DNA of 57,786 nucleotides from an uncultured Bifidobacteriaceae bacterium (GCA_964538105.1 CAZIFP010000001.1:1-57786), one strand, 5' to 3'; counted from the stretch's first letter, positions 32,762 to 52,272 are shown. A program made the numbers and translations. The notes: a model not told the origin generated them from the letters alone.

Positions 32762-33460
32762 TTAGCCTGAAACGCGCAGCCAGCTTAGATGCACCACGGC
32801 GACGACCACTCCAAGTCCGGCACCGGCAAGAACGTCAAGCACGACATGCTGGCGGATGGCAACCGTGGAATAAAGAATGCCGAGACACCACAGCCAGTTG
32901 AACGCGCATACAAATTTCCCGGCACCCATCTGTCGCAACAGACGATTGAGCCAGATGGCAGTGAACACGGCAAAAGCCACATGTAGGGAGGGACAGACGT
33001 TGCCCGAGGCATCAACCGACTGCAGAAATGCAAACGCCGGATGCTGCGACCAGTCGGTGTCGGACCATGACACAGTCGTCGGCCAGAGGAGAAATATTCC
33101 CAGACCGATAATACTGAGTCCGACGGTGGCCAGTGCGTAGGACACGATTTCGCGGCGCTCAATCAGCAGCGCGGGCGCCAGCGACACATAAAACCACAAT
33201 GACAAATAGAGCGGCAGGGCTTCGGGTTGGAAGGTGATCAGCCGGTCAACGGCGGTGTGCGGCATCGTGGTGACTGGGAAAAACGGATGTTTGAGCACCC
33301 AGAAATAGGCGATAAAAAACAAGGTCATGACGAGGGTCATGCCAATCATTTTGGCCGGCCACCACTTAAGCGCGCGGAGACGGGCTTGATGAAGCCAGCC
33401 AATGCTGGGCGGATGCTTGTGAGGCAAGTCCATGATCAAGGGCGTAACAAGCGATGTCAC
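32762..33460 (-). CDS. PAP2 superfamily membrane protein (PAP2_C / head-group transferase-like H-H-D motif)
   Basis: Polytopic membrane protein with NVCPSLHVAF and IRQHVVLDVLAG (H...HxxxD). This resembles the sphingomyelin/IPC synthase-type PAP2 motif more than the KxxxxxxRP-PSGH-SRxxxxxHxxxD phosphatase motif. It lies 78 nt downstream of the ACP gene on the same strand. Confidence 0.72.
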   Translation of the reverse strand: MTSLVTPLIMDLPHKHPPSIGWLHQARLRALKWWPAKMIGMTLVMTLFFIAYFWVLKHPFFPVTTMPHTAVDRLITFQPEALPLYLSLWFYVSLAPALLIERREIVSYALATVGLSIIGLGIFLLWPTTVSWSDTDWSQHPAFAFLQSVDASGNVCPSLHVAFAVFTAIWLNRLLRQMGAGKFVCAFNWLWCLGILYSTVAIRQHVVLDVLAGAGLGVVVAVVHLSWLRVSG

Positions 33461-33538
33461 TCGGAAACAAAAAGCTGCAACCCAGCTCCATTTTACCTTC
33501 GCTAAATTATGTTTGCCGGCGTCGTGGCTGGAACATTT

Positions 33539-33814
33539 TTATTTAGGGGGGGGGGAATTGTGCTCTTGAATTGCTGCCGCAATGGTGTTGATGGTTTGCA
33601 TGACTTTGCGCGCGACTTCGACATCTGAAAGTTTCAGCCCGAAATTTTTCTCCAGGGCGACCACCAGTTGCAGCGCATCAATCGAATCCAACCCCAGACC
33701 GTGCGGGCCGAACAAAGGCTGGTCATCCCCAATTTCTGTCGCACTGATTTTGAGCATGCAGTTTTCAACCACCATTTTTTTGATCCGGGCCTTGAGTTCA
33801 GTTGAGTCATTCAT
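33539..33814 (-). CDS. acyl carrier protein (cluster-dedicated)
   Basis: A 91-aa protein from MNDSTELKARIKK (ATG 33814..33812) with the phosphopantetheine attachment motif LGLDSIDALQLV. The track ORF is longer (to 34111), but the extra part overlaps the upstream gene. Confidence 0.88.
   Translation of the reverse strand: MNDSTELKARIKKMVVENCMLKISATEIGDDQPLFGPHGLGLDSIDALQLVVALEKNFGLKLSDVEVARKVMQTINTIAAAIQEHNSPPPK
33546..33555. repeat. G10 (C10 on the coding strand) homopolymer at the extreme 3' end of the ACP gene
   Basis: Read directly: atttaggggggggggaattg. It encodes the terminal ...NSPPPK* of the ACP. Confidence 0.9.
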
Positions 33815-33861: not shown

Positions 33862-34908
33862 TTAACCCGTTTTCGCGCAAGCCCGAAAACGCGCGCCAAT
33901 CGCCTGCTGATTCGCGCCCACCACGCTGGCATTCACGGCGGAAAAATGGCCGCTCGCAATCGCGTTGCCGGCGGCGACGCACTGCCAGGCGGCCGAGGCC
34001 GTGAACCCCTCGCCGAGAATTGATTTCGGCACTAGCCGCCGGCCTGACCAGTCGCGCCATGCCATATTTTCCGCTGCTGCCGCAAGCGGGTTTGGTTGCG
34101 CGCTCACGCACAGCAATTCATCCGGCCCGCAGGGCGGCAATTGCGCCCGCATTTTTCGCGCGGCTTCCGACCGGTTCTGGAGTTGCGTGAATAAAAAGGA
34201 ATCTGTGATGCCCACCAGTTCCGCGCCGACCGCCGGCGGCTTTTCCTTCCGTAAGTAAATCGCGCCGGACCCGGCGCTGTGAATCGCGTCATGTTGAAAC
34301 AGTCGTATCGCCTCGGTGACAACCCAGTCCATCTCTTCAGCGCCAACAACGACCACACCATCCGCCCGGTCATCCAGCAGCCAGTCGGCGGCCACCGCCA
34401 GCCCTTGGAAAAAAGTTCCGTCGTCGCCAACCAGCGTGTAGCCGGTTCCGCTCGAATTGAGATACGCCGCGAGATGGCTGGCCGGGGCATTGAAAACGGT
34501 TTCGGGGAAAAACTGCGGGCTGGCCAGGGCCGGTTCGCGCAAAACCTCCTCATAAAACCGCCGTGAATAAGCGACGCTGCCGGCCATGGTGCAGACGATG
34601 ATGCCGAGCCGCAAATCGCCACCTTGGATTCGCACAACGTCGCCGCCCAATGCTTCGAGGGCGGCGGCCACGGTGTGCAGGCTGATGTCGCTCGCGCGCC
34701 GCAAACGAGGATGCGCAAAAAATGCCGGGCGAATTTCCGGCGGTGGCACGTTGCGGATGCACAAGGGCTTTTCCCAGCCCGGCCGCACCACGCTCTCCGT
34801 GGGAATGAGATGGCACTTGGTCAAGGCGGTCTGCAAGGCTGCAACACCCCAGCCCGCCGGAGAAACCGCGCCGAGGCCGTGAACGAAAATTTTTCTCGGC
34901 GCGTTCAT
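33862..34908 (-). CDS. beta-ketoacyl synthase-like protein lacking catalytic Cys/His (chain-length-factor-like partner)
   Basis: A KS-type N-terminus (IFVHGLGAVSPAGWG) is present. By eye alignment to the adjacent KS, the active-site ACASG position reads LVGDDGTF, and the C-terminal GHLLGAAG position reads GEGFTASAA. It is 348 aa, shorter than a KS. Confidence 0.72.
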   Translation of the reverse strand: MNAPRKIFVHGLGAVSPAGWGVAALQTALTKCHLIPTESVVRPGWEKPLCIRNVPPPEIRPAFFAHPRLRRASDISLHTVAAALEALGGDVVRIQGGDLRLGIIVCTMAGSVAYSRRFYEEVLREPALASPQFFPETVFNAPASHLAAYLNSSGTGYTLVGDDGTFFQGLAVAADWLLDDRADGVVVVGAEEMDWVVTEAIRLFQHDAIHSAGSGAIYLRKEKPPAVGAELVGITDSFLFTQLQNRSEAARKMRAQLPPCGPDELLCVSAQPNPLAAAAENMAWRDWSGRRLVPKSILGEGFTASAAWQCVAAGNAIASGHFSAVNASVVGANQQAIGARFRACAKTG

Positions 34909-34980: not shown

Positions 34981-36222
34981 TTATTTCCACCTCCGAAAAA
35001 TGAGCGTGGCGTTCGCGCCGCCAAAGCCAAACGAGTTGGAGAGGGCGGATTCAATCTTCGCATCCATTGGTTCGCCCAAGATTTTAAAATGGCAGACGGG
35101 ATCGGGCGTGGTGATTGAAGCTTGCGGCGGCAGCCATTGACCGCGCAAGGCCATGAGACAAATGACGGCTTCCGCCGCGCCGGCCGCGCCGAGCAGATGC
35201 CCGCTGACGGATTTTGTGGAACTGACCCGCAAATGTTTCGCGCCGTCACCCGCCCAGCGATTGATGGCGGCGGCTTCGCTCGCATCATTGTGCGGGGTGG
35301 CCGTGCCGTGCGCGTTGAGGTAGTCAATTTGCCCCGGCAAAATTTTTGCGCTGGCGCAGGCAGCGGTCATCGCGGCCAAGGCCGCCTTGCCTTCGGGATG
35401 CGGTTGCGTGAGGTGATGCGTGTCGGTCGCCGTGCCGTAGCCGATGATTTCGCCCAGAATTTCCGCACCGCGTTCTCGTGCATGGCCGAGCGTTTCCAAA
35501 GTCAGGATGGCCGCGCCTTCACCCAGCGTGAGTCCGTCGCGCTGTGCGTCAAACGGACGACAGGGGGTGGTGGAAAGTGCCTGGAGCGAATCGAATCCGG
35601 CAAACGTCAACTGGCACAAGGTGTCGTAACCGCCGGTCAAAACTTTTTCCGCGCGTCCCTGCCGCAACATTTCCCAAGCATGGCCGATGGCATTTGCACC
35701 GGAGGCGCAGGCGTTGGAAATGGAGGTGAGCGGGCCTTGAAAGCCAAACGCGCTGCACAAGTTGAGCCCCTGCTGCTGCACCTGATAGTGCATGACACGC
35801 GTCGCCTGCTGCTTTTTCTGGAGTGGCATCTCGATGGCCTGCTGCAGAAATTTTTCGCCCAAAACCATTTCGCCGCTGGTTGTGCCGAGAACCACGGGCA
35901 AATCTTCCGCCGATTCCCAACCTGCCTGCGTCCACGCTTCGTGGGCGGCGTGCAACAGCATCCAGGTGGCGCGATCCAGCCGGCGCAAGGTGTTCGCGGA
36001 AAGTTTGGTTTGCGGAAGTTCGGAAGGTAAATCAATCTCCGCCGCGATTTTGGCACGTTGCCGTGAAACATCAAACAGCGTCACGGGACGAATGGCGGGG
36101 CGCCCGGCACGAAACCCTTCGGCATTGAGACGACAGCCGACGCCGAGCGCAGTGACAATGCCCGCGCCGGTCACGACGACGCGATGGGGCCGGACGGGAG
36201 ATTTTGGGTGAGGAAACAGCAA
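34981..36222 (-). CDS. beta-ketoacyl-ACP synthase (FabF/KAS II-like)
   Basis: The catalytic triad contexts are ISNACASGANAIGHA, YLNAHGTATPHND and STKSVSGHLLGAAG. The track ORF extends to 36342 and would overlap the radical SAM gene. A TTG at 36222, 7 nt after that gene's stop, gives a standard ~413 aa. The exact start is uncertain. Confidence 0.88.
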   Translation of the reverse strand: MLFPHPKSPVRPHRVVVTGAGIVTALGVGCRLNAEGFRAGRPAIRPVTLFDVSRQRAKIAAEIDLPSELPQTKLSANTLRRLDRATWMLLHAAHEAWTQAGWESAEDLPVVLGTTSGEMVLGEKFLQQAIEMPLQKKQQATRVMHYQVQQQGLNLCSAFGFQGPLTSISNACASGANAIGHAWEMLRQGRAEKVLTGGYDTLCQLTFAGFDSLQALSTTPCRPFDAQRDGLTLGEGAAILTLETLGHARERGAEILGEIIGYGTATDTHHLTQPHPEGKAALAAMTAACASAKILPGQIDYLNAHGTATPHNDASEAAAINRWAGDGAKHLRVSSTKSVSGHLLGAAGAAEAVICLMALRGQWLPPQASITTPDPVCHFKILGEPMDAKIESALSNSFGFGGANATLIFRRWK

Positions 36223-36229
36223 GCGCGCC

Positions 36230-37354
36230 TCAAGTTTGAATTGCGGTTTCGGAAATGGTTTCGGTCGTGACCTTACCGGCGTTCTTGTCCCGGTAAAATT
36301 CCGCGAGTCCTGATTTCGACGGCGCGAGTCCTTCGGCGGCAATCGCCGCCAGCACCCGTTCCTCGGTCATGATGAAACGGTCGCGTTTGTAGATGACGTA
36401 ATCCCCGCGCACATCGGTCGGCGTCAAATTGATCGTCACGAGGTTCGCGCCGGCGCACAGGCCGCGCCGGTAGCCATCCTGGGCGGCAAGGTTGAACGCA
36501 CTGACGGCGGGAATCACCCAGTCCGGACGCATCATCCGCAGGGCGCTGACACAATTAAAAGTCCAGTCGGAGTTTGCCGTCGGATTCCCGGCCAGCGGCG
36601 TGTCCTCGCCCGGAATGAACGGGCTGACGCTGCATCCGCTCAACGGCAGCGAACGGGCCAGCTCCAGATTTTTAAGCAAATCGCGCGGCGTCTGGCCCGG
36701 CAGCCCGGCGATGAAGCCGGAACTGACGTTCCATTTATTTTCCGCGAGGAGACGGACATGCCGCAACCGTTCCGCCAAAGTGCCGGGCGCTTCGAACTGC
36801 TCGTATTGCGCGGCATTACCGGTCTCAAACTTCATGATGAAAATGCTCGCGCCGGCGGCTCGCAGTTCGGCATAAAGTTCTGGCGACAGTGTTCCCAGAC
36901 AGACGCTGATGCCGAGCGATGTTTTCCGCCTCAAGGTCTCGATGAGCGGCAGCACGACTTCACGCACCGCCACCGGGTCTTCACCCGTCTGAATGTTCAC
37001 GTCCGTCACGCTCGCGGGACGATGCTCAATCAGGAGTTCGGCGATTTGCTCGGCCCGCGCGCGGTAGCGGGCGAGGCTGCGATTATCACGGCGCATTCCG
37101 CAGTAGGCGCAGTTTTCGCGGCAGAAATTTGAAACCTCGACGACGGCGCGCACAAACACTTTTTTGCCGAACACCTTCCGGGTCACGGCGGCGGCGCGTT
37201 CATGGAACATCACTTGCGCCGCGCCGGTCAAAGCGAGTTCCGACTCCGTGGGAAAATATCCATGACTTGCCACTCGCAAATAATAATAGGCGGAGGGTTC
37301 CGACGCAACCAGTGGGGAAAACACCCCATGGCCATGAACCGAAAGCCGGCTCAA
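36230..37354 (-). CDS. radical SAM enzyme, BioB/HydE/ThiH-like subfamily
   Basis: The CX3CX2C cluster is CRENCAYC within VVEVSNFCRENCAYCGMRRDN. The segment SSGFIAGLPGQTPRDLL resembles the HydE/BioB-type GxIxGxPGQT segment. TIM-barrel length is 374 aa. Confidence 0.85.
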   Translation of the reverse strand: MSRLSVHGHGVFSPLVASEPSAYYYLRVASHGYFPTESELALTGAAQVMFHERAAAVTRKVFGKKVFVRAVVEVSNFCRENCAYCGMRRDNRSLARYRARAEQIAELLIEHRPASVTDVNIQTGEDPVAVREVVLPLIETLRRKTSLGISVCLGTLSPELYAELRAAGASIFIMKFETGNAAQYEQFEAPGTLAERLRHVRLLAENKWNVSSGFIAGLPGQTPRDLLKNLELARSLPLSGCSVSPFIPGEDTPLAGNPTANSDWTFNCVSALRMMRPDWVIPAVSAFNLAAQDGYRRGLCAGANLVTINLTPTDVRGDYVIYKRDRFIMTEERVLAAIAAEGLAPSKSGLAEFYRDKNAGKVTTETISETAIQT

Positions 37355-37377: not shown

Positions 37378-38133
37378 TTATTTACGCGCCTGCAAAACGA
37401 TGCGCGCGCCGTGATAACGCCACACGTTTGCCCCGGGGATTTCCGCCCGTGCCGCCAGTGCGCGCCATTCGTTCAGGCGAAAACCACGCTGCACCGAAAT
37501 CAGACCATCTTCAATAATGGTCCGGTCTGCGCGCATTAGGTGCAGCGCCAGCCAGACCAGAGCGTAAAGCCCGGCGTTGCGGTGCAGGTCGCAGATGAAA
37601 ATGGCGTCGCGGGTCACCCGCCATGCCTCACGCCAGTGCGTGACGACCTGTTCGTCCGTCAGATGATGCGTCATTTGTGAGGCGACGACAAGATCAAAGC
37701 TGCCATCGGCGAACGGCAATTGCAGCGCCGAACCCACGACGCCGTCCGGCAGGCCGCCAATTTTTAGCGCCACCGGGTTCGTGTCCAGATTGGTGAAATG
37801 CCAGTGCCAACCGCGCTGCTGTGCCCATTCTGCCAATGTTTTTCCAAGCAACCCTGTGCCCGCGCCCACGTCGAGAATCTCCAGCCGTTCACAATTTATT
37901 TTGCCAAGCCACTGCGGCAACACGGCTTCAAATGGATGCGAGAAGCGAAAGAGAACATTGACGCGGTTGAGATCGCGGAACGAAGCGGCAATCTCCGCCT
38001 CGGTGCGTTCAGGGAGGTCAAAATATTCCGTCTGCGTTGAACGATGGCTCAAAAACATAATTCTCATCAAGAGAAACACGGATGCAACTTCAGTTCCAGT
38101 CACAAACGTCGTTGCAAACCCAGGCCGCCACAT
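37378..38133 (-). CDS. class I SAM-dependent methyltransferase
   Basis: Motif I is LEILDVGAGTGLLG, with an acidic loop and motif post-I present. The start may be the internal MRIMFL/MFLSH (38067/38058). Confidence 0.8.
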   Translation of the reverse strand: MWRPGFATTFVTGTEVASVFLLMRIMFLSHRSTQTEYFDLPERTEAEIAASFRDLNRVNVLFRFSHPFEAVLPQWLGKINCERLEILDVGAGTGLLGKTLAEWAQQRGWHWHFTNLDTNPVALKIGGLPDGVVGSALQLPFADGSFDLVVASQMTHHLTDEQVVTHWREAWRVTRDAIFICDLHRNAGLYALVWLALHLMRADRTIIEDGLISVQRGFRLNEWRALAARAEIPGANVWRYHGARIVLQARK

Positions 38134-38151: not shown

Positions 38152-39000
38152 TCAGAGAAAATCTTTTCCATCGGGCAAGGTGAAAACGTAGCCGTCCGCC
38201 GTCAGCCGGGTCAAAACGGTTTCGGCCAGGATCAAATTGATCGGACGCCTCTGCCGGTCGCGCCGGCCTTCGTGCAACAAAATGATCGCGCCGGGTTGGA
38301 TGGATTTGCAGATCCGGCCGGCCATGGCTTCGGTGTTGTGAAGCAATCCGTCAAATCCGCGCGCCGACCAGCCGATGAGCTTCAGGTTCCGGTCGCACAA
38401 TAAAAAGTGCAGAAATAGGTTGGCCATGCCCGCCGGTGCGCGAAACCACCGTGGTGGTTCACCGGTGGCATCGAGGAGGGTTTTGGTGCAGTCATCAATC
38501 TCCCGCGTCAGCCGGGTTTGGAGATAACACCAGAAAAATAGAACCGGATGGTTCCGGGTGTGATTGGCCAGCGTGTGACCCTCACGCAAGATCGCCCGTG
38601 CCAGTTCGGGATATTTTTGAACCTGCCGGCCGATGACAAAAAAGGTTGCCCGCGCGTTGTGCATTTTCAGCAGCTTGAGCAATGCCGGCGTGTCTTCGGG
38701 ATGCGGCCCGTCATCAAAGGTCAGCCAGACGGCCTTTTTTTGCGTGCGAAAGCGGGTAACGACCGGGCCAAACCAGCGGCAGTTGGCGCGAATGGCCGGA
38801 TAAACAATCAGAAATTTGGTGGCCAGTTCCAGGGTGATAAAAATCAGTTTGTGATTCCAATTGAGGGCAATGAGCACGGGCGTGGTCGCTCCAACGGCGA
38901 GAATCAGAATCAGCGCCAACCGGCGGCGTGTAAAAAACCAGCGGCCCAACCTGGTCAGACTGGCATCGGGCGCGACGCTGATGTTTTTGTCCTGTGACAT
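38152..39000 (-). CDS. polysaccharide deacetylase (NodB homology domain, CE4) with N-terminal membrane anchor
   Basis: CE4 motif 1 is LTFDDGPHPEDTP. Motif 2 is NHTRNH, within GHTLANHTRNHP. Two N-terminal hydrophobic helices are present. Confidence 0.85.
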   Translation of the reverse strand: MSQDKNISVAPDASLTRLGRWFFTRRRLALILILAVGATTPVLIALNWNHKLIFITLELATKFLIVYPAIRANCRWFGPVVTRFRTQKKAVWLTFDDGPHPEDTPALLKLLKMHNARATFFVIGRQVQKYPELARAILREGHTLANHTRNHPVLFFWCYLQTRLTREIDDCTKTLLDATGEPPRWFRAPAGMANLFLHFLLCDRNLKLIGWSARGFDGLLHNTEAMAGRICKSIQPGAIILLHEGRRDRQRRPINLILAETVLTRLTADGYVFTLPDGKDFL

Positions 39001-39009: not shown

Positions 39010-39780
39010 TCAGAGAATTTTCCGCCCGTGTTTGGCACGCTGCCGCAATTTCCAAATCCGTTTCATCTGCGGCAACATCTCCAGCACCAAAAGCGTGTGC
39101 CGCCGGATGAGCAGCAAATTGTCCCGCAGATAATGGAAGTGGGAGGTTCCGCCCTCGGCCGGTTTGAAATAGTGGACCGGCGCGGGTAGGTTGACCGGCG
39201 GGACGCCGGCCCAAAAAAGCCGCACGGCAAGTTCGGTGTCGAAATCAAAACGCCGCGCGCTGCGGATGCCTTGCAGGATGCGCACCGATTCCTGAATGGG
39301 ATAAACCCGAAAACCAAACAATGAATCTTCGATTCCGCCCCAAAAGGTTTCCAGATTAGCCCACCAGTTTCCCACGCGCCGGCCGTGCCGACGCGATGCC
39401 GGCGCGTCGGCGGCAAATTGCGGCACGCCCAAAATCATGGCGGCGGGATTTTTCTGCGAGGCCGACATGAACTGGGGAATATCGGCCACCGAATGCTGCC
39501 CATCCGCGTCCAGCACCAGCGCATGGGTGAAACCCTCCCGGCTGGCTGCGAGCATTGCGTGTAACACCGCCGCGCCCTTTCCAGAATTTCGTTCCAGGGT
39601 TAAAACCCGCAGCCCGGCTCCGTCAATTTCGGCCACAGCCGCCGCACTGCCGTCGGTGCTGCCGTCCATCACGACCCAAACCGGCTGCCAGCAAGCCAAT
39701 GCCTGTCTCACCGTTTCGGCGAGTTTGCCTCCCGCATTGTAACTGGGGATGACAACCAAATGCGTCGGACTCGTCGTCAT
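39010..39780 (-). CDS. family 2 glycosyltransferase
   Basis: VVIPSYNAGGKL, MDGSTDGS and a DxD-like LVLDADGQH are typical of the GT2 GT-A fold. It overlaps the upstream acyltransferase by 4 nt. Confidence 0.85.
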   Translation of the reverse strand: MTTSPTHLVVIPSYNAGGKLAETVRQALACWQPVWVVMDGSTDGSAAAVAEIDGAGLRVLTLERNSGKGAAVLHAMLAASREGFTHALVLDADGQHSVADIPQFMSASQKNPAAMILGVPQFAADAPASRRHGRRVGNWWANLETFWGGIEDSLFGFRVYPIQESVRILQGIRSARRFDFDTELAVRLFWAGVPPVNLPAPVHYFKPAEGGTSHFHYLRDNLLLIRRHTLLVLEMLPQMKRIWKLRQRAKHGRKIL

Positions 39781-44481: not shown

Positions 44482-44503
44482 AGCCCCTGCCCCTGCAAAA
44501 AAT

Positions 44504-44539
44504 AAAACAGCCGGAACAGTTGCCTGTTCCGGCTGTTTT
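44504..44539. terminator. strong rho-independent (bidirectional-looking) terminator
   Basis: A perfect 13-bp GC-rich stem, acagccggaacag / ctgttccggctgt, with loop ttgc. It is flanked by an A-run upstream and a T-run downstream, extendable to 16 bp. It lies 23 nt after the antiporter stop. Confidence 0.75.
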
Positions 44540-44894: not shown

Positions 44895-45086
44895 TCAGAC
44901 CGCCATCTGGGAACTTGACTGGGTCCAGTTGCTGGGGCCGGCGGTGCCCACCACATTGGCCTGGGCCATGTAGATTGTGCCCGGCTTCAGGCCGGTGAAC
45001 GTGTAGCTGGACGGCGTGGACTGGGCCGCTTTCACGACCAAGTGTGTCCACAAATTGTGAAGCGCCTTGTCTCGTAACAGGACAAG
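44895..45086 (-). pseudogene. orphan fragment encoding the C-terminal half of a fibronectin type III-like domain
   Basis: My own translation of the minus strand gives LVLLRDKALHNLWTHLVVKAAQSTPSSYTFTGLKPGTIYMAQANVVGTAGPSNWTQSSSQMAV*. SYTFTGLKPGTIY...V.A.N..G.G is FN3-like. An in-frame TAA lies immediately upstream, and there is no ATG or N-terminal half. It is in a different frame from track ORF 44665..45267. Confidence 0.35.
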
Positions 45087-45227
45087 TTACGTTTGGCCGT
45101 CGCGGAGCGACGCGGTGACAATAGCCCGGCATTTCAATGCCGGGTTTCCCGACATCGGTTTGCAGGAGTTCGCGCCTAAGCTTGCCAAGAGGTAAAGGCG
45201 TTTGACTTCCCGGCATCTGTTGGCAAG

Positions 45228-45995
45228 GTGGGTTGGATGAATGAACAACGCGATTTGACGGCGACACCGCTCTCGCCGCACCGGCCGCTCCCGGAGTTTT
45301 ATGCGGCCCCGGAGGCGCGCCAGAACTTTGTCAATGAACTGTTCGACGAGGCCGCGCCGGATTATGACTGGGTGAGCAGCATGATGTCGTTCGGGCGGGA
45401 CCGGATCTATCGCCGGGAAGCCTTGAAGCGGGCCGGGTTGACGGGCGGGATGCGGCTGCTGGACGTGGCGAGCGGCACGGGCCTGATGATCAAGGCCGCG
45501 CTCGAACTCGGCGTGAACCCCGCGAAGGTGACCGGCGTGGATCCCAGCCGGGGCATGCTGGCGGAAAACCGGAAGCGCAATCCGGTGACGTTGCTGGAAG
45601 GCAAGGGGGAAGCCCTGCCCTGCGCGGATGCGGCGTTCGACTTTGTGTGCATGGGTTACGCGCTGCGGCACGTGGAGGATCTGGGCAGGTTGTTTGGTGA
45701 ATTCAAGCGCGTTTTGCGGCCGGGTGGAAAGGTGTTGATCCTGGAAATCACGCGGCCCACGAATCCGGTGGCGCTGCCCTTGATCCGTTTCTACATGCAA
45801 CAACTGGTGCCGCGCATCGGCTGGTTGCGTCGGCGGAACAAATCCACGGTGAAGCTGATGCAGTATTACTGGGCCACGATCCAGGAATGTGTGCCGCCGA
45901 ATGTGATCGTCACCGCGCTGGCGGACAGCGGTTTCAAGAACGTCAAACGCACCGTCAGCAACGGGATTTTGAGCGAGTATGTCGCCCAGCGGTGA
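45228..45995 (+). CDS. class I SAM-dependent methyltransferase, UbiE/MenG-like
   Basis: FDEAAPDYDWVSSMMSFGRDRIYRRE plus motif I LLDVASGTGL, and RVLRPGGKVLILE, match the UbiE/COQ5 family pattern. The start may be 45237. Confidence 0.8.
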   Translation: MGWMNEQRDLTATPLSPHRPLPEFYAAPEARQNFVNELFDEAAPDYDWVSSMMSFGRDRIYRREALKRAGLTGGMRLLDVASGTGLMIKAALELGVNPAKVTGVDPSRGMLAENRKRNPVTLLEGKGEALPCADAAFDFVCMGYALRHVEDLGRLFGEFKRVLRPGGKVLILEITRPTNPVALPLIRFYMQQLVPRIGWLRRRNKSTVKLMQYYWATIQECVPPNVIVTALADSGFKNVKRTVSNGILSEYVAQR

Positions 45996-46051: not shown

Positions 46052-46486
46052 TTAGTTTCCGCTGAGCGTCAATTCCGCCGTCAGCACAATAATCTCCGCG
46101 CCGACGCGGGCGGTGGCCTGTGCCTGAACCAAAGTGCCGAGCCGGCCGGTTATTTTTGCCTCAAGGTGGATGGTTTCACCGGGTTTCGCCGTGCCGTGAA
46201 TTTTCACGGATCGCAGCGCGGTCAGTTTCAAATTACGAAGCGGCGGAATTTTCGGGTCGCTTTGCGCCACGACGCCCGCGAGCTGCGCCGCAGCCTCGAC
46301 GAGCAGCACACCGGGAAAAATCGGTTCATTCGGAAAATGGCCGCGCAAAAACGCCTCGTCCCCGCGGACGGTGTATTCGCCTGCGCCGCTTTCACCGGGG
46401 TTCAAACTCGTCAGCCGGTCAACGAACCGGAATTCCGCGCCATGCGGCAGAAATTGTAGCGCACGTTGCAAATCGTCTGGATTCAT
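46052..46486 (-). CDS. 3-hydroxyacyl-ACP dehydratase (FabZ/FabA-like hotdog fold)
   Basis: FRFVDRL...LRGHFPNEPIFPGVLLVEAAAQLAG contains the catalytic His and downstream Glu context of FabZ. The start is at MNPDDL, overlapping the upstream stop (ATGA 46483-46486). Confidence 0.85.
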   Translation of the reverse strand: MNPDDLQRALQFLPHGAEFRFVDRLTSLNPGESGAGEYTVRGDEAFLRGHFPNEPIFPGVLLVEAAAQLAGVVAQSDPKIPPLRNLKLTALRSVKIHGTAKPGETIHLEAKITGRLGTLVQAQATARVGAEIIVLTAELTLSGN

Positions 46487-47184
46487 CTGGCAAACGGATC
46501 GGTGACTTTGTAATTGGCGGGCGGAGTCCACTCGAATAATTTTTCGTCCAGCACCGGATTCAAGACCGCGTTGCTGAAATCATTCCGCATCCGCGAGCCG
46601 TCCACAAAAACCAGTTCGGTGCTGGCCAGCGAGAAATCATTCGTCGCCAGACCGATGCGCAGTTCCGGCATCATCCGCTGCGCGAAAGTGCTTTTCGGCT
46701 GGAGCGACATTTGCCATGTGGTATTCGTTTCCATGAGCGACAAAATCTGAAACTGCGCGTCAAATTCCTTCCGGTCGCGCGGAAAACCGGCCTGCAACAG
46801 CGACATCGTATCGCGCCATTCGGTGGGCGTGCCGGCCCCAAGCGGATAGCGCTCGGCGCGTTTCAAACGCGGATAAATCACGAACATCTCGTCGCCATGC
46901 CGGAGCGCGATGGTCTGTGCCGGCTGGCCGAGTTCCCAGCGAAAGTCGTTCGGCATGGCGAAGGCGATGTGGCCTTTGGCGGTGAGCGGCTGGGTCAGAG
47001 TTTTCAACGCGCGGGTCTGGACAAAATCAGCGGACCAGGTGTGGAGGTTTTTTTGCGCGGCGAACCAGGCGTCGAGAACGGTGTTGGTGTCGGCCGCACC
47101 GGCAATGAAAAATGAAAAATGAAAAATGAAAAATGCCGCTGCCAGTTGTGTCGATTTTTTAATTTTGAATTTTGAATTTTTCAT
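46483..47184 (-). CDS. LolA-like outer-membrane lipoprotein carrier family protein
   Basis: The signal peptide is MKNSKFKIKKSTQLAAAFFIFHFSFFIAGAAD. The mature part (WFAAQKNLHTWSADFVQTRALKTLTQPLTAKGHIAFAMPNDFRWELGQP...) follows the LolA/LolA-like pattern seen in aryl-polyene clusters. The start overlaps the upstream stop (ATGA 47181-47184). Confidence 0.72.
   Translation of the reverse strand: MKNSKFKIKKSTQLAAAFFIFHFSFFIAGAADTNTVLDAWFAAQKNLHTWSADFVQTRALKTLTQPLTAKGHIAFAMPNDFRWELGQPAQTIALRHGDEMFVIYPRLKRAERYPLGAGTPTEWRDTMSLLQAGFPRDRKEFDAQFQILSLMETNTTWQMSLQPKSTFAQRMMPELRIGLATNDFSLASTELVFVDGSRMRNDFSNAVLNPVLDEKLFEWTPPANYKVTDPFAR
47105..47181. repeat. two AT-rich heptanucleotide tandem repeats inside the signal-peptide coding region of the LolA-like gene
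   Basis: Read directly: (atgaaaa)x4 + atg at 47105-47135, and (aattttg)x2 + aattttt at 47161-47181. On the coding strand TTTTCAT x4 encodes FFIFHFSFFI. Confidence 0.85.
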
Positions 47185-50100
47185 TTCTGCTGTTGCTCCG
47201 GCCAGACCGGGACGAAGTGAAACCAGTGCGCCAGATGCTGCCGGATGGCCGGCTCGAACGCACGCAGGATTTCCTGGGTCAACTGGATGCGGGCCGCCCG
47301 GTTGCCGATCGTGGCGCGGTCGTAGGGAATCTCCGGCAAAATCCGGGCGAGATGACCGCCGCCCTGGCGCACAATGTAAACCGGAACAATGGCACAACCC
47401 GAGGCGCGGGCGAGTTCGGCGGCGGCGATTGAAGCCGGAAACGGACGGCCAAACAGATCCACGTTCACCGCCGTCGGCGCGGGCGGACGATCCACCAGCA
47501 ATGCCACCGTGGCCCCGGCCTGCAGGCGCTTGATGATTTCAATGAAGGCAAAGGCGTCTTCGCCGACGACCAGGGTTTCAACACCCCGCAATGATCGGGA
47601 ACGCTGGCGCAGTTCAGTCATCTTTTGATCCGGCTCGGGCTGCGTGAGCACGAGCAGTTTGTAACCGTGTTCGACGAGAAACGCGCCTCCGAATTCCCAG
47701 TTCCCAAGATGCGGCGTGACCAGCAGCACACCCCTGCCGCGCGCATGAGCGGCGGCGAAATGTTCCCAGCCGTTCCACTCGCCCAGCCAGCTTTCAAACG
47801 CCACACCGCTTTCGTAACGCCAGAGGTCGGTGATTTTAAGAAAAAATTCCGTGATCAATTCCCGGCCAACACGGGCGGCTTGCGGACGGTCGCCGTTCAA
47901 AGCGGGCAGAAGGTTTTGAATCACGATTTCGCGCCGATGCGCCGCCAGCCGCCAGTAGATCGCGGCCAGCATCCGGGCAAAGAACCCGAAAACCGGCGCA
48001 GGAATGTAGCGTCCGAGCGTCAAACCGGCCCGCCAGATGAACGTGCTGTAGAATTGCGACGGCTCGGAAATTTTTGCGGACGCAGTTTTCAAGTTCTTCT
48101 CGCCAACAATAAATTTCCACCATACCGGCAATAGAAAAACCGAGAGCAGCATGTTGCAACCGATGCCGATGGCGCAGACCCGGCCGAGGCTGGACATGCC
48201 TATGTTGCTCGATAGGCCGAGCGTGCCGAAACCGGCGATCGCCGTCCCGCCGCAAAGCAGCAGCGCGCGTCCGACCGATTGATGGGCCAGTTTCAAATCG
48301 CCGCCATGCCGGCGCAGCGCTAGCTGCATGAAAATGCTGTAATCCACGCCCGTGCCGAGAATCAGCGGTAGCGCCATGAGGTTGAGCAGATTCCACGACC
48401 AGCTGAAAATCTTCATCACTGCCAGCAGGCAGAGGCCGCTCAAAAGCAAAATTCCGACGCTGAAAAAAACTTCCGCGAACCGCCGGAACGCCAGCCAGAG
48501 TGAAAACAGGATCAGTCCGACCATCGGCAGCAGGACTTTCCAGAGATTGTTTTTGACGGCGGCCAGAACAGTTCCGCCGAGCAAATCCCAGCCTGAAAGC
48601 CAGACTCCATCGTGCGGCAGTTGCTCATCCAGCCGGGCAAACGCGGTCGTCGTTGCGTTCGTCGATGGATAAAGGAAACCCACGGCATAAAAGTTTTGCG
48701 GCTCGCGGACAGACAGCTTTTCAAAAATCCAAGTGCAGAGCGGATTCGTCGGCCAGAAAACATTCGTGGTCGCGGCGGCGCGCTGCCAGGTTTCCAAAAT
48801 GCTCCCGGTCAGTCCAAGCGCAGTTTCGGAAAAGCTATTGGTCAAGGCGGCGGCGCGAAACAGATCCAGTTCAGCGGCAAGCTGCCGGGCACTCGCACGA
48901 TTGGCGGCTTGAAACTCCGGTCGCGGCCAGAGCGCACTGGGCAGCGTTAAGCCGGAAAGCGTCTGGTTGGAGACCGCGGTGTTGAGCGCCGGCAGAACCG
49001 CATCCAACTTTCGCGCCACTTCACTTTCATCACGGCCCGAAATCACCAGCCAGAGCGGCTCGCGCTTTTGGTTCAGGTTTTCCTTGATGGAGTCGAGCGT
49101 CGTGTAGGCCTGACTGTCGCGCGGGCGCAGGGCGTTGGCGGTGGGATCCATTTTTGGCAGGCCGGACATCAATATCACGGCGCAGAGCAAAATTATAAGC
49201 GCCGTGACCGTGAAGACAAATTTTGCACGGAGCGGGTTTAGCAAAGACGGAGAATCAACCGCGCTTTTGGATTCTACACGTTTCGCTTGAGCCCGCATTC
49301 GTTGCGGAAACAACGGCGGAAGAAACGCAAAAATCATCACGCAGGCCGAAATGGCGACGCCAATGCCGACAAGCGAGCCGAGTTGGGCGAGACCCGGCAG
49401 TCCGCCAAAGTTCAAAACAAGAAAGGCGGAAATCGTGGTAAACGCCGCCCAGAAAATGCTCGGGGCGATCGCGCGGCGGATTTCCGGGATGGATAGTTCC
49501 GGCTGCGCGAGCGCCTCCTGATAATGCACGACGGCGTAATCCACCGCGAGCCCAAGCAGGATTGCCGCGAAGCCCATGCTGATGACGTTGACCGCGCCGA
49601 AGATCAGGCCGCCGAGCGCGAGCGACGTCGCCAGAATCAGGGCCAGTAGCGTCAGCAGCCAGAGCATCGGCTTGATCCGCCGGTGGGCGCACCAAAATAG
49701 AATCGCGATAATCGAGGCCGTGCCACCGACGGACAATTTCATGTCGTGCTGCATGCTGCCGGAAATTTCCGCCGTGAATGCCGGCCGGCCGGTATAACCA
49801 ATTGTTATCTTTGCATCGGACGGCGACTTGTTGATGACGCTTTTTATGGCATTGAACCATGCCGTGCATTCGCGGTAACCATTCAGTTCACCTCGCGCCT
49901 TGACGAAAATGATCCGGAACGTGCCGTCGGCAGAGGCGAATAATTCCTGTCCCGACCCGAAACCGGAAACCGTTCCGGCGACATTTTCAGGCAGGCGCGT
50001 CAGGCCAAACGGATCGTAGCTTAACTGCGCGATTTCATTGGGCGAAAGCGTGGTGGCCAATTGGTCTCGCGTGGCCGCGAGCACATTCGCGAGATTCGTT

Positions 50101-50477
50101 TCGGAAAGCTGGCCGGCCAGTTGCACAAATTGTTCCGGCGGTTGATTCAGCCAGAGATACGCGATGAGTTCGGCGGTCTGTTCGGGATGCTCCTGCCACG
50201 GCGGCTGCCAGGTGACGGCGGCAACGAGATTGGTCGCTTGCTGCAAGCCTTTGGCGATGGCTTTGGCGGCGTGTTCGGCGGTGTCACGGTCCGGTGCCCG
50301 GACGGTGATGATCAGTTCGCGTGCGTCCGTGAAATGTTGCTGATAAATCTTGAGCCCTTGAACTGCGGGAATGTTTGCGGGTAGCAGGTCGAGCATCTCG
50401 GCATCCAAATGCAGCCGCGCCAGTCCTGCAATGATCGGAACCAGCAGCAGCAACCACCACCAGCGAAACCATTTCAT
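47181..50477 (-). CDS. fusion protein: MMPL/RND-type exporter (N-terminal ~800 aa) + LpxL/HtrB-type lipid A biosynthesis acyltransferase domain (C-terminal ~290 aa)
   Basis: The N-terminal part has two blocks of ~6 TM helices with large loops, typical of MMPL-type 'putative exporter' proteins of aryl-polyene clusters. The C-terminal 290 aa (about 47184-48053) carry HLGNWE (HX4E) and the Lip_A_acyltrans-like pattern. The start is at MKWFRWWWLLLLVP (50477), overlapping the upstream stop. Confidence 0.82.
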   Translation of the reverse strand: MKWFRWWWLLLLVPIIAGLARLHLDAEMLDLLPANIPAVQGLKIYQQHFTDARELIITVRAPDRDTAEHAAKAIAKGLQQATNLVAAVTWQPPWQEHPEQTAELIAYLWLNQPPEQFVQLAGQLSETNLANVLAATRDQLATTLSPNEIAQLSYDPFGLTRLPENVAGTVSGFGSGQELFASADGTFRIIFVKARGELNGYRECTAWFNAIKSVINKSPSDAKITIGYTGRPAFTAEISGSMQHDMKLSVGGTASIIAILFWCAHRRIKPMLWLLTLLALILATSLALGGLIFGAVNVISMGFAAILLGLAVDYAVVHYQEALAQPELSIPEIRRAIAPSIFWAAFTTISAFLVLNFGGLPGLAQLGSLVGIGVAISACVMIFAFLPPLFPQRMRAQAKRVESKSAVDSPSLLNPLRAKFVFTVTALIILLCAVILMSGLPKMDPTANALRPRDSQAYTTLDSIKENLNQKREPLWLVISGRDESEVARKLDAVLPALNTAVSNQTLSGLTLPSALWPRPEFQAANRASARQLAAELDLFRAAALTNSFSETALGLTGSILETWQRAAATTNVFWPTNPLCTWIFEKLSVREPQNFYAVGFLYPSTNATTTAFARLDEQLPHDGVWLSGWDLLGGTVLAAVKNNLWKVLLPMVGLILFSLWLAFRRFAEVFFSVGILLLSGLCLLAVMKIFSWSWNLLNLMALPLILGTGVDYSIFMQLALRRHGGDLKLAHQSVGRALLLCGGTAIAGFGTLGLSSNIGMSSLGRVCAIGIGCNMLLSVFLLPVWWKFIVGEKNLKTASAKISEPSQFYSTFIWRAGLTLGRYIPAPVFGFFARMLAAIYWRLAAHRREIVIQNLLPALNGDRPQAARVGRELITEFFLKITDLWRYESGVAFESWLGEWNGWEHFAAAHARGRGVLLVTPHLGNWEFGGAFLVEHGYKLLVLTQPEPDQKMTELRQRSRSLRGVETLVVGEDAFAFIEIIKRLQAGATVALLVDRPPAPTAVNVDLFGRPFPASIAAAELARASGCAIVPVYIVRQGGGHLARILPEIPYDRATIGNRAARIQLTQEILRAFEPAIRQHLAHWFHFVPVWPEQQQK

Positions 50478-50971
50478 GGGAAAAATTCGCCCTCCAGCGT
50501 TTCGCCCGTGTGTGAATCTTGCAGTCGCCACGAATTGGTTTCAATACGCGTAAATTTCCAACTGCCGCCGAGGTTAGGGTCAAGCAGTGCGTGAGGCAGT
50601 TGAAACCAGCCGAAGCGATTGAGCGGCGTGCCACGGCCGTGCCACGCGTATTGGTCCGCACCGAATTCAATCTGCCATTGGTCGCCGGAAACCTGCGCGG
50701 TCGCCAGCGGAAACGGCATTTTTGAAAACTGGATGAAAAAATTTCCGTTCACATTGGTGGCCAGCAGCAGATCGCCGGCAAGTTCGGGGCGGCTTGACGA
50801 AGGTTTCCAGACGGCCTGGCCCTGCTGGACGCGCCAGCCGGGCGCGGAAAAATCGGCTGGCGGAAACGGCCGGGCTGTGCGGCAGCCCGCGCAAAGAATC
50901 AGCAGCAGCGCGGATAAAATGAGGATGGAACGGTGCACACGAACGATTTCAATTTCGATCGGACGTTTCAA
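50474..50971 (-). CDS. small lipoprotein, possibly DUF3261-like
   Basis: A signal peptide with LILCAGC lipobox-like site is followed by a beta-rich ~140-aa mature part. Its position between halogenase and exporter matches the DUF3261 lipoprotein slot of aryl-polyene clusters (a recollection). The apparent start is TTG, overlapping the upstream TGA (TTGA). Confidence 0.55.
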   Translation of the reverse strand: MKRPIEIEIVRVHRSILILSALLLILCAGCRTARPFPPADFSAPGWRVQQGQAVWKPSSSRPELAGDLLLATNVNGNFFIQFSKMPFPLATAQVSGDQWQIEFGADQYAWHGRGTPLNRFGWFQLPHALLDPNLGGSWKFTRIETNSWRLQDSHTGETLEGEFFP

Positions 50972-52272
50972 ACTTTCGCGGCGGCTTCAGAGGTTTGAAA
51001 TTGTTTCAGATGTCGCCGCAGAAAAGGCAGGTGCGGCACGAGCGGCCAGCGTTGCTGGAGTTTGACGAGCAGGAAAAAGTATTTCAACCGCCAGCGCAGT
51101 TTCCACCCGCCTTCCAGCTCGCCCGCCAGCACGGCGTTCACCGCCGACGGCAGATCGTGGTGGTCGCGCGGCTGCAAAAAAAGTTCCATGAACGGCGTGG
51201 TGTAATAATTCTCCACGACATGCCAATAAAACATGAGTCCCTTGCGGACGCGCTTTTCGTAACTGGCAAACAGCCGGCGACTCGGTCGGCCTTGCGCGAG
51301 TGATTTCTGAACGGCTTCGGCGGCGATTTTTCCCGACCACATGGCAAGAAAAACTCCGGCGGAAAAAATCGGGTCCATGAAACCGGCGGCGTCGCCGACG
51401 CGCAGCAAACGGTCGCCGGTAAATTTGCGGTTGTAGTAGCTGAAATCGGTCGTCGTCTGGAGATCGCCGAGGCGGCGCGCATTTTTCATGCGCTCTTTGA
51501 CGGGCGGGCTGGATTCGATCCAACGGTGAAAAATTTCCTCGGGAGAGCCGCCGGTCTGGTTGAACTCGTCCTTGTCAATGACGAGACCGACGCTGGTTTT
51601 TTCGGCGGAGAGCGGAATGATCCAGAACCATTTGTTTTGGAGGCGGACGATGACGGTGTCGGTGTTGGCCTCGCCGGAGTCGCGCACGACATTTTCAAAA
51701 TGGCCGAAGACGGCGAGCTTTTTCCAGGTCGGGTGCATCTCGCGCAGATTTTCCTGGTTGCCGGTGAGGTTGCCGCGTCCGCTGGCATCAATCAGAAACG
51801 CCGCACGGAAATTGTAGGTTTTCCCGCCGGAATCGCGCGCCTCGACATTCACGCCTTCGGAATCAGAGACGGTTTTTATCACCGACCAACCTTCGCGGAC
51901 ATTCGCCCCGGACTCGCGGGCGTGCTTCAGCAGAACGTGATCAAAGGTTGCGCGTTCAACCTGGATGGCTTCCGGCTCGCGGTTGAATCTGCCCTGCCGG
52001 AAAACAAAGCGTGTGCTGATGGATCCATTGCCCAGTCCGAATTGCGCGCCGTATTTGCGCGGAAATCCCGCCGCCTGCAACGCGGGCAGGACGCCCATGT
52101 CGCGGAAAATGGTCATGTTGCAAGGCAGGAGCGATTCACCGATGTGAAAGCGCGGGAAAATTTCCTTTTCCAACACGAGCACCCGCTTGCCCGCCCGTGC
52201 GAGAAATGTGGCGGCGCTGCTGCCGCCCGGACCGCACCCGATGATCAGCGCGTCATAAGTATCCTGATTCAC
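50968..52272 (-). CDS. flavin-dependent halogenase (Trp-halogenase/FAD-dependent oxidoreductase family)
   Basis: The FAD-binding fold is GCGPGGSSAA (residues 13-22). The halogenase hallmark WxWxIP is WFWIIP (residues 215-220, nt 51613-51630, verified on the DNA). The second hallmark FxxPxxSxG is FMDPIFSAG (residues 298-306). Confidence 0.8.
   Translation of the reverse strand: MNQDTYDALIIGCGPGGSSAATFLARAGKRVLVLEKEIFPRFHIGESLLPCNMTIFRDMGVLPALQAAGFPRKYGAQFGLGNGSISTRFVFRQGRFNREPEAIQVERATFDHVLLKHARESGANVREGWSVIKTVSDSEGVNVEARDSGGKTYNFRAAFLIDASGRGNLTGNQENLREMHPTWKKLAVFGHFENVVRDSGEANTDTVIVRLQNKWFWIIPLSAEKTSVGLVIDKDEFNQTGGSPEEIFHRWIESSPPVKERMKNARRLGDLQTTTDFSYYNRKFTGDRLLRVGDAAGFMDPIFSAGVFLAMWSGKIAAEAVQKSLAQGRPSRRLFASYEKRVRKGLMFYWHVVENYYTTPFMELFLQPRDHHDLPSAVNAVLAGELEGGWKLRWRLKYFFLLVKLQQRWPLVPHLPFLRRHLKQFQTSEAAAKV

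Follow-up and report, generated by a model that had tools for sequence, protein, structure and literature searches.

The window analysed here, a 57,786-nt stretch of DNA, carries between positions 32762 and 52272 a cluster of biosynthetic and transport genes which, judged by the proteins it encodes, is most likely a verrucomicrobial system for making a halogenated, pigment-like lipid and delivering it to the outer membrane. Genes were called from a listing of open reading frames (ORFs), from their translations, and from Pfam and NCBIfam searches. The features of the region, in order of position, are:

32762-33460, minus strand: PAP2-family membrane phosphatase, last gene of the ketosynthase (KS) operon in this subclade (Pfam PAP2, 1.8e-11)
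33539-33814, minus strand: acyl carrier protein (ACP), 91 aa (PP-binding, 8.4e-10)
33862-34908, minus strand: inactive, chain-length-factor (CLF)-like KS partner, 348 aa, with the KS catalytic residues lost
34981-36222, minus strand: active FabF-like KS, 413 aa (Pfam ketoacyl-synt N- and C-terminal domains)
36230-37333, minus strand: HydE/PylB-like radical S-adenosylmethionine (SAM) enzyme (TIGR03956 HydE, 187.6 bits, cutoff 254.6)
37378-38058, minus strand: class I SAM methyltransferase (MT1), PRK06202-like (Methyltransf_11/25)
38152-39000, minus strand: NodB-family polysaccharide deacetylase (Polysacc_deac_1, 1.3e-31)
39010-39780, minus strand: GT2 glycosyltransferase, orthologue of the ApeJ N-terminal domain (36% identity to ApeJ residues 1-238, E 8e-48)
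39777-40580, minus strand: ApeD-like, PlsC-type acyltransferase (Acyltransferase, 7e-16)
40590-40720: divergent intergenic region (73-91% nucleotide identity in 15 related loci)
~40720-41088, plus strand: small, family-specific integral membrane protein, ~122 aa (orthologues in 43 of 79 loci)
41067-41813, minus strand: DUF8321/DUF8322 protein, 248 aa, divergently transcribed from the AMP-ligase (precomputed Pfam matches PF26995 and PF26997)
41859-43118, plus strand: short adenylating enzyme (AMP-ligase), 419 aa (AMP-binding and AMP-binding_C)
43216-44481, plus strand: CPA2 cation/proton antiporter (Na_H_Exchanger, 3e-47)
44482-45227: non-coding spacer, 746 bp, with a hairpin and an RNA motif
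45228-45995, plus strand: UbiE-like SAM methyltransferase (Ubie_methyltran, 8e-30)
46052-46486, minus strand: FabZ-like 3-hydroxyacyl-ACP dehydratase (FabA-like, 2.9e-17; weakly ApeI-like)
46483-47160, minus strand: LolA-like periplasmic carrier (LolA, 2e-13; NCBIfam LolA2_flexi, 5e-14)
47181-50531, minus strand: MMPL/RND exporter fused to an LpxL-type acyltransferase, the latter at residues ~827-1110 (MMPL and Lip_A_acyltrans)
50474-50971, minus strand: small all-beta lipoprotein (lipobox Cys, 'GC|R', conserved in 29 of 29 orthologues)
50968-52272, minus strand: flavin-dependent, carrier-protein-dependent (variant B) halogenase, 434 aa (Trp_halogenase, 2.8e-24)

The genes are arranged in two minus-strand operons. 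One, running from 40580 to 32762, encodes in order the PlsC-type acyltransferase, the GT2, the NodB deacetylase, MT1, the radical SAM enzyme, the KS, its KS-like partner, the ACP and the PAP2 protein. The other, from 52272 to 46052, encodes the halogenase, the lipoprotein, the MMPL-LpxL fusion, the LolA-like carrier and the FabZ-like dehydratase. Inside each operon the genes abut or overlap, as read directly from their coordinates. The AMP-ligase, the antiporter and the UbiE-like methyltransferase lie on the plus strand. Every gene that the original prediction had named in this region was confirmed by the Pfam and NCBIfam searches, although its list omitted two, those for the DUF8321/DUF8322 protein and the small membrane protein.

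Related loci were found in 84 species-level genomes, one genome per species having been scanned with the AMP-ligase. The scan used N-terminal peptide patterns of this enzyme, so its coverage is that of the close family. All 84 carriers are metagenome-assembled genomes (MAGs), most of them Limisphaerales and the others Pedosphaera or subdivision 3, bar a few evidently mislabelled bins. Thus loci L009, L015, L038, L044, L045, L051, L066, L068 and L074 lie in genomes labelled, for example, as Methylomirabilota, Bifidobacteriaceae, Akkermansia muciniphila or Chitinophaga pinensis, labels which probably reflect errors of binning or naming. Metagenomes hold hundreds of close homologues of each of three proteins, namely the radical SAM enzyme, the KS partner and the DUF8321 protein. 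Those homologues that carry a name are all from Verrucomicrobiota, and gene order is kept on the metagenomic contigs where the homologues lie.

Mapping of every window protein onto the related loci gave as the commonest order ACP-(KR)-CLF-KS-(two B12 radical SAMs)-(HydE-like radical SAM)-GT2-(MT)-small ORF-DUF8321-AMP-ligase-FabZ-LolA-MMPL/LpxL-lipoprotein-(halogenase), where KR is a ketoreductase and MT a methyltransferase. This order runs through both halves of the cluster, and the KS side and the export side are therefore contiguous in most relatives. In 29 loci the visible sequence extends for 8 kb or more to either side of the AMP-ligase. The KS side and the export side are both there in 15 of these, the KS side alone in three, the export side alone in four, and nothing but the AMP-ligase/DUF8321 pair in seven. 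The cluster is conserved and real, and its two halves belong together. The original prediction had staked its case on such co-conservation, which was found; its description of the cluster as bipartite and interrupted, by contrast, is not supported, the interruption being specific to the subclade of the window, into which the antiporter (7 loci), the UbiE-like methyltransferase (9 loci) and the PAP2 gene (6 loci) have been inserted.

One known system with which the cluster can be compared is the aryl polyene (APE) cluster, apeA-R, of E. coli CFT073 and Xenorhabdus doucetiae, whose products are aryl polyene lipids (APELs). All 18 Ape proteins of E. coli CFT073 were compared by BLASTP and hhalign, the core of the biosynthetic gene cluster being taken, after Grammbitter et al., as apeO/R (KS), apeE/F (ACP), apeC (CLF), apeI/P (dehydratase), apeQ (KR) and apeM (transporter). 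The window has homologues of ApeD (the PlsC-type acyltransferase, 33% identity, E 4e-33), of both ApeJ domains (the GT2 and the LpxL-type part of the fusion, the latter 25.5% identical to the ApeJ C-terminus, E 5e-6), of ApeE (the ACP, 37% identity), ApeL (the LolA-like carrier, hhalign 95.8%), ApeM (the exporter part of the fusion, BLASTP 1e-8), ApeH (the AMP-ligase, hhalign 97.9%) and ApeI (the FabZ-like protein, hhalign 92.6%), while ApeQ has a homologue in relatives of the window but not in the window itself. The export pair of ApeM and ApeL and the anchoring module of ApeD and ApeJ are thus both represented. In the APE lipid pathway, ApeD acylates a lysophospholipid and ApeJ adds N-acetylgalactosamine and transfers the polyene from ApeE (bioRxiv 10.1101/2020.12.19.423268); export via ApeM, ApeL and ApeN has been proposed rather than demonstrated. 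The same logic, of a chain built on an ACP, attached to a glycerophospho-aminosugar lipid and exported by an MMPL protein and a LolA-like carrier, can be read in the window. There are differences nonetheless. The APE cluster has two ACPs (ApeE, ApeF) and two KSs (ApeO, ApeR), the window one of each; it has a dehydratase pair, ApeI/ApeP, where the window has a single FabZ-like protein and no counterpart of ApeP; and ApeJ is one protein, whereas in the window its two domains are divided between a GT2 that stands alone and an acyltransferase joined to the exporter. The window adds to the APE set a deacetylase, a halogenase and a radical SAM enzyme.

Several of these additions are shared with the xanthomonadin-type clusters, as which the regions examined on Skermanella sp. 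TT6 pTT6-1 and Burkholderia sp. RPE67 p1 were recognized. Relative to these, the window proteins are 57-60% identical for the GT2, 40-42% for the PlsC-type acyltransferase, 34-40% for the NodB deacetylase, 35-36% for the halogenase, which has its motifs in common with theirs, and 44% for the UbiE-like methyltransferase. The counterpart of the last is the methyltransferase beside the Skermanella halogenase (hhalign 100%). Furthermore, hhalign relates the AMP-ligase (99.3%), the exporter (99.8%, to an MMPL protein), the LpxL-type domain (70%, to a Lip_A_acyltrans protein) and the FabZ-like protein (95%, to a 113-aa dehydratase) to Skermanella proteins. A search of plasmid proteins with the GT2 returned genes of ~60% identity in Skermanella, Azospirillum, Burkholderia and Caballeronia. 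The arc (arcuflavin) loci of Azoarcus sp. BH72 comprise a halogenase, a methyltransferase, a polysaccharide deacetylase, a glycosyltransferase, acyltransferases, an exporter, LolA, a dehydratase, an AMP-ligase, an ACP, a KS and an 'N-terminal KS domain' protein, and also list a Na/H antiporter, arcG (PMC3949708); comparison of the gene tables matches this list to the window nearly gene for gene. Several of the features that the original prediction had presented as differences are therefore standard for the family. This holds for its pairing of deacetylase and glycosyltransferase, which is already present in xanthomonadin-type clusters, as are the halogenase, the methyltransferase and the Na/H antiporter (PMC3949708). 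The radical SAM enzyme and the exporter-acyltransferase fusion, in contrast, stand as departures from both APE and xanthomonadin-type clusters.

Other departures can be added. Xanthomonadin-type clusters have a XanB2 chorismatase, a MipA/OmpV protein, a second dehydratase, a COG4648 protein and (compared with this subclade) a KR, all of which the window lacks, and four window proteins have diverged greatly from theirs: the KS, its partner, the LolA-like carrier and the AMP-ligase. The LpxL-like acyltransferase is fused to the exporter, unlike in the xanthomonadin-type clusters, and the HydE-like radical SAM enzyme, the DUF8321/8322 protein, the small membrane protein, a different lipoprotein and the PAP2 protein are additional to the xanthomonadin-type set. 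The fusion is retained in L001 and is conserved in the family. The lipoprotein bears no similarity to ApeN/DUF3261 by hhalign, and a single-sequence AlphaFold2 model of it was unusable (pLDDT 50). Nor did hhalign match the lipoprotein, the small ORF, the DUF8321 protein or the PAP2 protein to ApeN, ApeG, ApeA, ApeK or the Skermanella hypothetical proteins. By these comparisons the new elements here would be the radical SAM content, the KS pair, the exporter-acyltransferase fusion and the DUF8321/8322 protein, the anchoring, export and tailoring set being already known.

The KS retains an intact set of catalytic residues (Cys172, His305, Lys337 and His342). In its partner, the Cys and both His of the triad are gone from all 29 orthologues examined, with Glu in place of the second His in 28 of them, as expected of the inactive partner originally proposed. 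Against the TIGR03150 fabF model the KS scores 370 bits, short of the cutoff of 493.75, and by this measure it is not a housekeeping FabF of ordinary type II fatty acid synthesis (FASII). It is equally distant, at ~35% identity, from EcFabF, ApeO, ApeR and the Skermanella KS, so that it forms a separate clade. Among solved structures the KS is closest to T. thermophilus FabF (300 bits) and anammox amxFabF2 (257), with the A. baumannii APE ketosynthases at ~182. The top structural match of the partner is anammox amxFabFmut (9s5h_C, E 4e-6), the dead subunit of an anammox KS/CLF-like heterodimer, and by hhalign the partner matches the Skermanella chain-length factor at 81% and ApeC at 1%. The ACP is the sole carrier protein of the cluster; its best NCBIfam models are those of the carrier proteins PRK09184 and PRK07081, and a search of solved structures gave no informative relative.

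About half of the relatives encode a KR, which is 34% identical to ApeQ and 39-42% identical to the KRs of the Skermanella and Burkholderia clusters. The lack of a KR, listed by the original prediction as a difference, is therefore a property of the subclade of the window and not of the family. The KR-less layout CLF-ACP-PAP2 recurs in L004 and L018, which makes it a lineage trait rather than an artefact of assembly, and no remnant of a KR or PAP2 pseudogene was detected at the CLF-ACP junction by tblastn, tblastx or blastn. The PAP2 orthologues, confined to six related loci, are 77-87% identical; in L001 and L003 the gene sits between the UbiE-like methyltransferase and the AMP-ligase.

The stop of the radical SAM gene overlaps the start of the KS gene, and the two are predicted to be translationally coupled. 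The enzyme shares with HydE and PylB the same radical SAM subfamily fold and the motifs CX3CX2C and GxIxGxPGQT, its best PDB matches being HydE of T. maritima (158 bits) and PylB (76 bits). Unlike HydE, it scores under the TIGR03956 cutoff, and there are no hydrogenase (hyd) genes in the window. The C-terminal cysteines of the second-cluster site of HydE are lacking from its sequence. Orthologues at least 74% identical form more than 120 clusters. When 1.8 billion proteins are clustered at 50%, by contrast, no more than two full-length representatives reach 55% identity, and all others stay at or below 41%. The enzyme is thus narrowly distributed in a tight, separate clade. One 55%-identical homologue (L088 10001-11038; 11 cluster members on contigs of up to 172 kb) stands alone between genes for prolyl-tRNA synthetase and an epimerase, with squalene/phytoene synthase and MdoG/H-like genes near it. 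Among the wider relatives examined, a proteobacterial MAG (L094 7556-10933) has the sole 41%-identical homologue found beside an AMP-ligase and a carrier protein: its gene overlaps the end of the ligase gene, which is preceded by a GNAT-carrier-protein fusion, apparently within a mobile element. The association of ligase, carrier and radical SAM enzyme therefore recurs. Another 41% homologue (P0379, 567 aa, L093 3369-5072) is a HydE-like enzyme fused to a C-terminal class I methyltransferase and encoded beside an ABC transporter. The fusion echoes the adjacent methyltransferase and radical SAM genes of the window, albeit that its methyltransferase domain resembles MT1 only generically (E 0.007).

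MT1, present in 13 related loci, matches NF004851 at 3.5e-30, under the cutoff, and has no relative among solved structures. The UbiE-like enzyme, in nine loci, falls under the MenG/UbiE cutoffs.

The flavin-dependent halogenase has all the motifs of its class, as originally predicted: GxGxxG, the Lys of FPRK, WxWxIP and FxDPxFSxGV are conserved in all 14 orthologues. It resembles the variant-B halogenases over the whole FAD and halogenase core (200-217 bits), the order of PDB matches being ChlB4 (217 bits), then CndH, PltA, Bmp2 and CmlS. It differs from CndH and CmlS in lacking their C-terminal extension, and from the group in sitting in an export operon beside a lipoprotein gene. It adjoins that gene in 14 loci and is absent from 13 loci with room for it. 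Where it is present, the KS lies directly beside the HydE-like enzyme and there are no B12 radical SAM genes, whereas loci with two B12 radical SAMs never have the halogenase. Counting loci with both regions visible, five have the halogenase, nine the B12 enzymes and none both, shared ancestry being uncorrected in these figures; L011 and L072 exemplify the first type, L007 and L040 the second. The KR mostly accompanies the B12 type, although L014 has KR and halogenase together. B12 radical SAM genes occur in 15 related loci, tblastn finding none in the window. That of L003 passes the cutoff of TIGR04072 (rSAM_ladder_B12, lipid biosynthesis B12-binding/radical SAM protein) at 386.6 against 360 bits. 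A full-text literature search for TIGR04072 returned no papers. The 'ladderane' clusters called by antiSMASH are reported to be well represented in Verrucomicrobia (PMC7298704), and the TIGR04072-class enzymes of the relatives may explain these calls.

The DUF8321/8322 gene, between the operons, adjoins the AMP-ligase gene in 70 of 79 loci, and its product has invariant C57, H185, D205 and N207. The spacing of these Cys, His and Asp/Asn residues may resemble that of papain. An AlphaFold2 model built from 49 sequences was weak (pLDDT 65, pTM 0.49), and a Foldseek search of the PDB gave nothing at E<=1e-3, the only matches above 0.5 probability being papain-like proteases at a TM of ~0.27. The protein may be put forward as a candidate Cys-His-Asp enzyme, purely as a hypothesis one of chain off-loading or acyl transfer. 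The AMP-ligase is presumed to be a starter-acid:ACP ligase; its closest solved relatives are aryl-acid enzymes, namely DhbE (81 bits) and the feruloyl- and benzoate-CoA ligases. Orthologues of the small membrane protein always adjoin the DUF8321 gene and have no Pfam or NCBIfam match. The non-coding conservation of 40590-40720 is unusually high, which suggests a shared regulatory region, and this interval probably contains promoters or other regulatory elements.

The sequences show what the genes are, what they are homologous to, how the operons are laid out and that they are conserved together; how the components might act, with the order of steps and the substrates, is proposed by analogy with APE lipid biosynthesis. 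The AMP-ligase would activate the starter, a carboxylic acid and probably an aryl one produced by genes elsewhere in the genome, and load it onto the ACP. The halogenase and one or both SAM methyltransferases would then decorate the tethered unit; the solved relatives of the halogenase, ChlB4, CndH, PltA and Bmp2, all use carrier-bound substrates. The KS and its dead partner would extend the chain with malonyl units, and reduction by a KR (encoded in the cluster in relatives, here presumably replaced by FabG in trans) followed by the FabZ-like dehydratase, with no enoyl reductase, would leave the chain unsaturated. The HydE-like enzyme could perform some radical modification of a carrier-bound intermediate. 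The PlsC-like, GT2, NodB and LpxL-like enzymes would build a glycerophospho-aminosugar lipid, on the model of the Xenorhabdus APE lipid structure, and attach the chain to it, the GT2 and then the deacetylase acting on a lipid-linked aminosugar. The GT2 and NodB are fused into one 550-aa protein in L003 (7387-9039), and fused also in L070; the L003 fusion suggests that they act consecutively on one substrate. The DUF8321/8322 protein may help to off-load the chain, and the MMPL exporter, the LolA-like carrier and the lipoprotein would finally carry the lipid to the outer membrane.

We consider it probable that the region is a single biosynthetic and export system, and a Limisphaerales (Verrucomicrobiota) variant of the APE and xanthomonadin pathways for outer-membrane pigment lipids. 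The earlier likening to these pathways is sound for the anchoring, export and tailoring genes, which are homologous. A number of observations weigh against the assignment. The KS is no nearer to APE or xanthomonadin ketosynthases than to FabF; BLASTP and hhalign found no counterparts in the window of ApeC, ApeN, ApeG, ApeK, ApeP, ApeB or ApeA, and the ApeN (DUF3261), ApeG (COG4648) and ApeK (thioesterase) families had no Pfam match either. As the original prediction had correctly stated, a KR, a thioesterase, an ammonia-lyase or chorismatase and a second dehydratase are all missing: tblastn with the KRs of two relatives found no KR or other short-chain dehydrogenase/reductase in the whole window, and L004 and L018, which are closest to the window, likewise have no KR; the other large ORFs include no thioesterase, lyase or second dehydratase; and no starter-unit enzyme (TAL, UbiC or the XanB2/ArcB chorismatase, the source of 3-/4-hydroxybenzoate in xanthomonadin-type clusters) was found among the Pfam-scanned ORFs, although such an enzyme could lie elsewhere in the genome. 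The lean of the AMP-ligase towards aryl-acid enzymes, at 81 bits, is weak, the L088 radical SAM homologue is not part of any lipid cluster, and none of the 84 carrier species genomes is from a cultured organism. Finally, xanthomonadin-type clusters with this type of halogenase do not always yield a halogenated product, a non-brominated pigment being reported in Lysobacter (PMC3949708).

The most serious competitor, which we nevertheless consider unlikely, is that the product is no aryl polyene but a fatty-acyl lipid modified by radical SAM enzymes, of the 'extended FASII' kind represented by Kuenenia kuste3335-3352, Desulfotalea and Geobacter and called 'ladderane' by antiSMASH. The FabF-like KS and dead KS would build an aliphatic or partly unsaturated chain, radical SAM enzymes would methylate, cross-link or cyclise it, and the anchoring and export genes would serve as before. 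The structural affinities of the KS, nearer to FabF and amxFabF2 than to the A. baumannii enzymes, and of its dead partner, nearest to amxFabFmut, speak for this scheme, and many related loci have a B12 radical SAM enzyme passing the TIGR04072 cutoff. The parts of the Kuenenia cluster are much alike: a glycosyltransferase, a deacetylase-like protein, two methylases, two radical SAM enzymes, a CoA ligase, FabF and a non-canonical FabF, FabZ, FabG, ACPs and a lipoprotein-like protein (PMC4790861, PMC2649909). More broadly, the anammox and deltaproteobacterial clusters (Kuenenia kuste3335-3352, and Cluster I, kuste3603-3608) have in common with the window a KS and dead KS partner, a dedicated ACP and FabZ, radical SAMs, SAM methylases, a CoA ligase, a glycosyltransferase, and deacetylase-like and lipoprotein-like proteins. 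This comparison covers, by sequence, those anammox proteins with solved structures, the Kuenenia cluster being likened by its parts list and itself having no assigned function. The window differs in having neither a B12 radical SAM nor a phytoene-desaturase-like gene, in the HydE-like character of its radical SAM enzyme, and in possessing a halogenase and MMPL/LolA export. Its halogenase is of variant B, and the solved enzymes related to it use phenol or pyrrole units bound to a carrier; this and the 35-60% identity of its tailoring and anchoring genes to those of xanthomonadin-type clusters favour the pigment-lipid pathway. A further proposal starts from the coupling of the HydE-like enzyme to the KS/dead-KS pair, and from the sister loci in which TIGR04072 B12 radical SAM enzymes stand in for the halogenase. 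Both kinds of radical SAM enzyme would do radical C-C or C-H chemistry on an acyl or polyene chain held by the ACP, which must be considered doubtful.

Neither the window nor its halogenase-type relatives L004, L006, L011, L018 and L072 have a KR, while KR-bearing loci mostly lack the halogenase, and this invites another thought: a KR-less KS and dead KS might make a short poly-beta-keto chain which cyclises to a phenolic or resorcinol-like head group, halogenated, methylated and anchored to lipid. A halogenase and O/C-methyltransferases are typical tailoring enzymes of phenols. This seems improbable nonetheless, since the FabZ-like protein, with intact His and Glu, needs a beta-hydroxy substrate which housekeeping FabG could supply by reduction, no cyclase or aromatase was found, and L014 carries both KR and halogenase. 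We give almost no credence to the idea that the fatty-acid and envelope genes here do housekeeping work, or that two operons with nothing in common happen to be neighbours, so that there would be no dedicated product. This idea draws on the FabF-like nature of the KS, on the generic Pfam matches of the ACP and FabZ-like protein, and on the seven of 29 loci with the AMP-ligase/DUF8321 pair alone. The KS, ACP and FabZ-like protein, however, all score below their NCBIfam equivalog cutoffs; the KS has a dedicated dead partner, and no FabH, FabD, FabG or FabI gene neighbours it in the window by Pfam (and, for the KR, tblastn). More than ten components are orthologous to those of dedicated pigment clusters, and the two sides are co-located as described above. 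The idea is already largely refuted.

The cluster shows the anchoring and export logic of aryl polyenes and xanthomonadin to reach into the Verrucomicrobiota, joined there to radical SAM chemistry and an anammox-type KS pair. Soils, peat and lakes hold abundant, uncultured Verrucomicrobia of the Limisphaerales and of the Pedosphaera type, whose envelope lipids are very little known. No such cluster has been characterised in the phylum, in line with the original statement on pigments, although aryl-polyene and 'ladderane' clusters had already been flagged there by genome mining with antiSMASH (PMC9865893, PMC7298704). The cluster offers several handles: a HydE-like family without known function outside hydrogenase maturation, a DUF8321/8322 protein paired with an AMP-ligase, and the choice of either halogenase or B12 radical SAMs. 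Were the radical SAM proposal true, a new class of modified envelope lipid would exist in abundant soil Verrucomicrobia, and the radical SAM steps of anammox-type lipid clusters, as yet unsolved, could be approached in a tractable model. Should the product be only another membrane-bound antioxidant pigment, the result would be a useful annotation but an unsurprising one.

In most relatives the FabZ-like gene, itself present in 42 of 79 loci, directly follows the AMP-ligase gene. The antiporter occurs in only seven of the 84 related loci (four of the 79 from the genome scan); as a subclade-specific insertion, its membership of the cluster is doubtful. The 746-bp spacer behind it exists as originally described, but its description as scarred is not supported: tblastn, tblastx and blastn detected no remnant of a protein or pseudogene (PAP2, KR or the L004 ORF), and only the last 34 bp of the spacer are shared with relatives. 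A perfect 16-nt inverted repeat with a 4-nt loop and flanking A/T runs (44504-44539), beginning 23 nt past the antiporter stop, looks like a bidirectional terminator. On the minus strand at 45098-45144, upstream of the UbiE-like methyltransferase gene, there is a full-length match to the Rfam Acido-Lenti-1 RNA (RF01687), which forms both hairpins and scores 34.5 bits, under the gathering score of 37; the motif is not kept at this position in related loci. The stretch that leads from the AMP-ligase or antiporter to the UbiE-like methyltransferase is filled differently in the closest relatives, by inserts that resist annotation: L018 has a gap of 3.6 kb (~11240-14860), L004 an ORF of 271 aa without Pfam match (1547-2362). 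The junction is therefore a hotspot of turnover.

Two further features of the window deserve mention. At 4233-6985 it encodes a protein that resembles 3-dehydroquinate synthase but is extended by 140 aa at the N-terminus, and after it a type I phosphodiesterase/nucleotide pyrophosphatase; the former is probably unrelated to the cluster, a shikimate-type link being possible. At 52374-52832, on the minus strand, a gene for an sll1863-family stress protein adjoins the halogenase. Its counterpart adjoins the ACP gene in L003 (17345-17791) and lies just past the ACP gene in L011, which suggests either that the cluster was rearranged at this point or that the gene is loosely associated with it.

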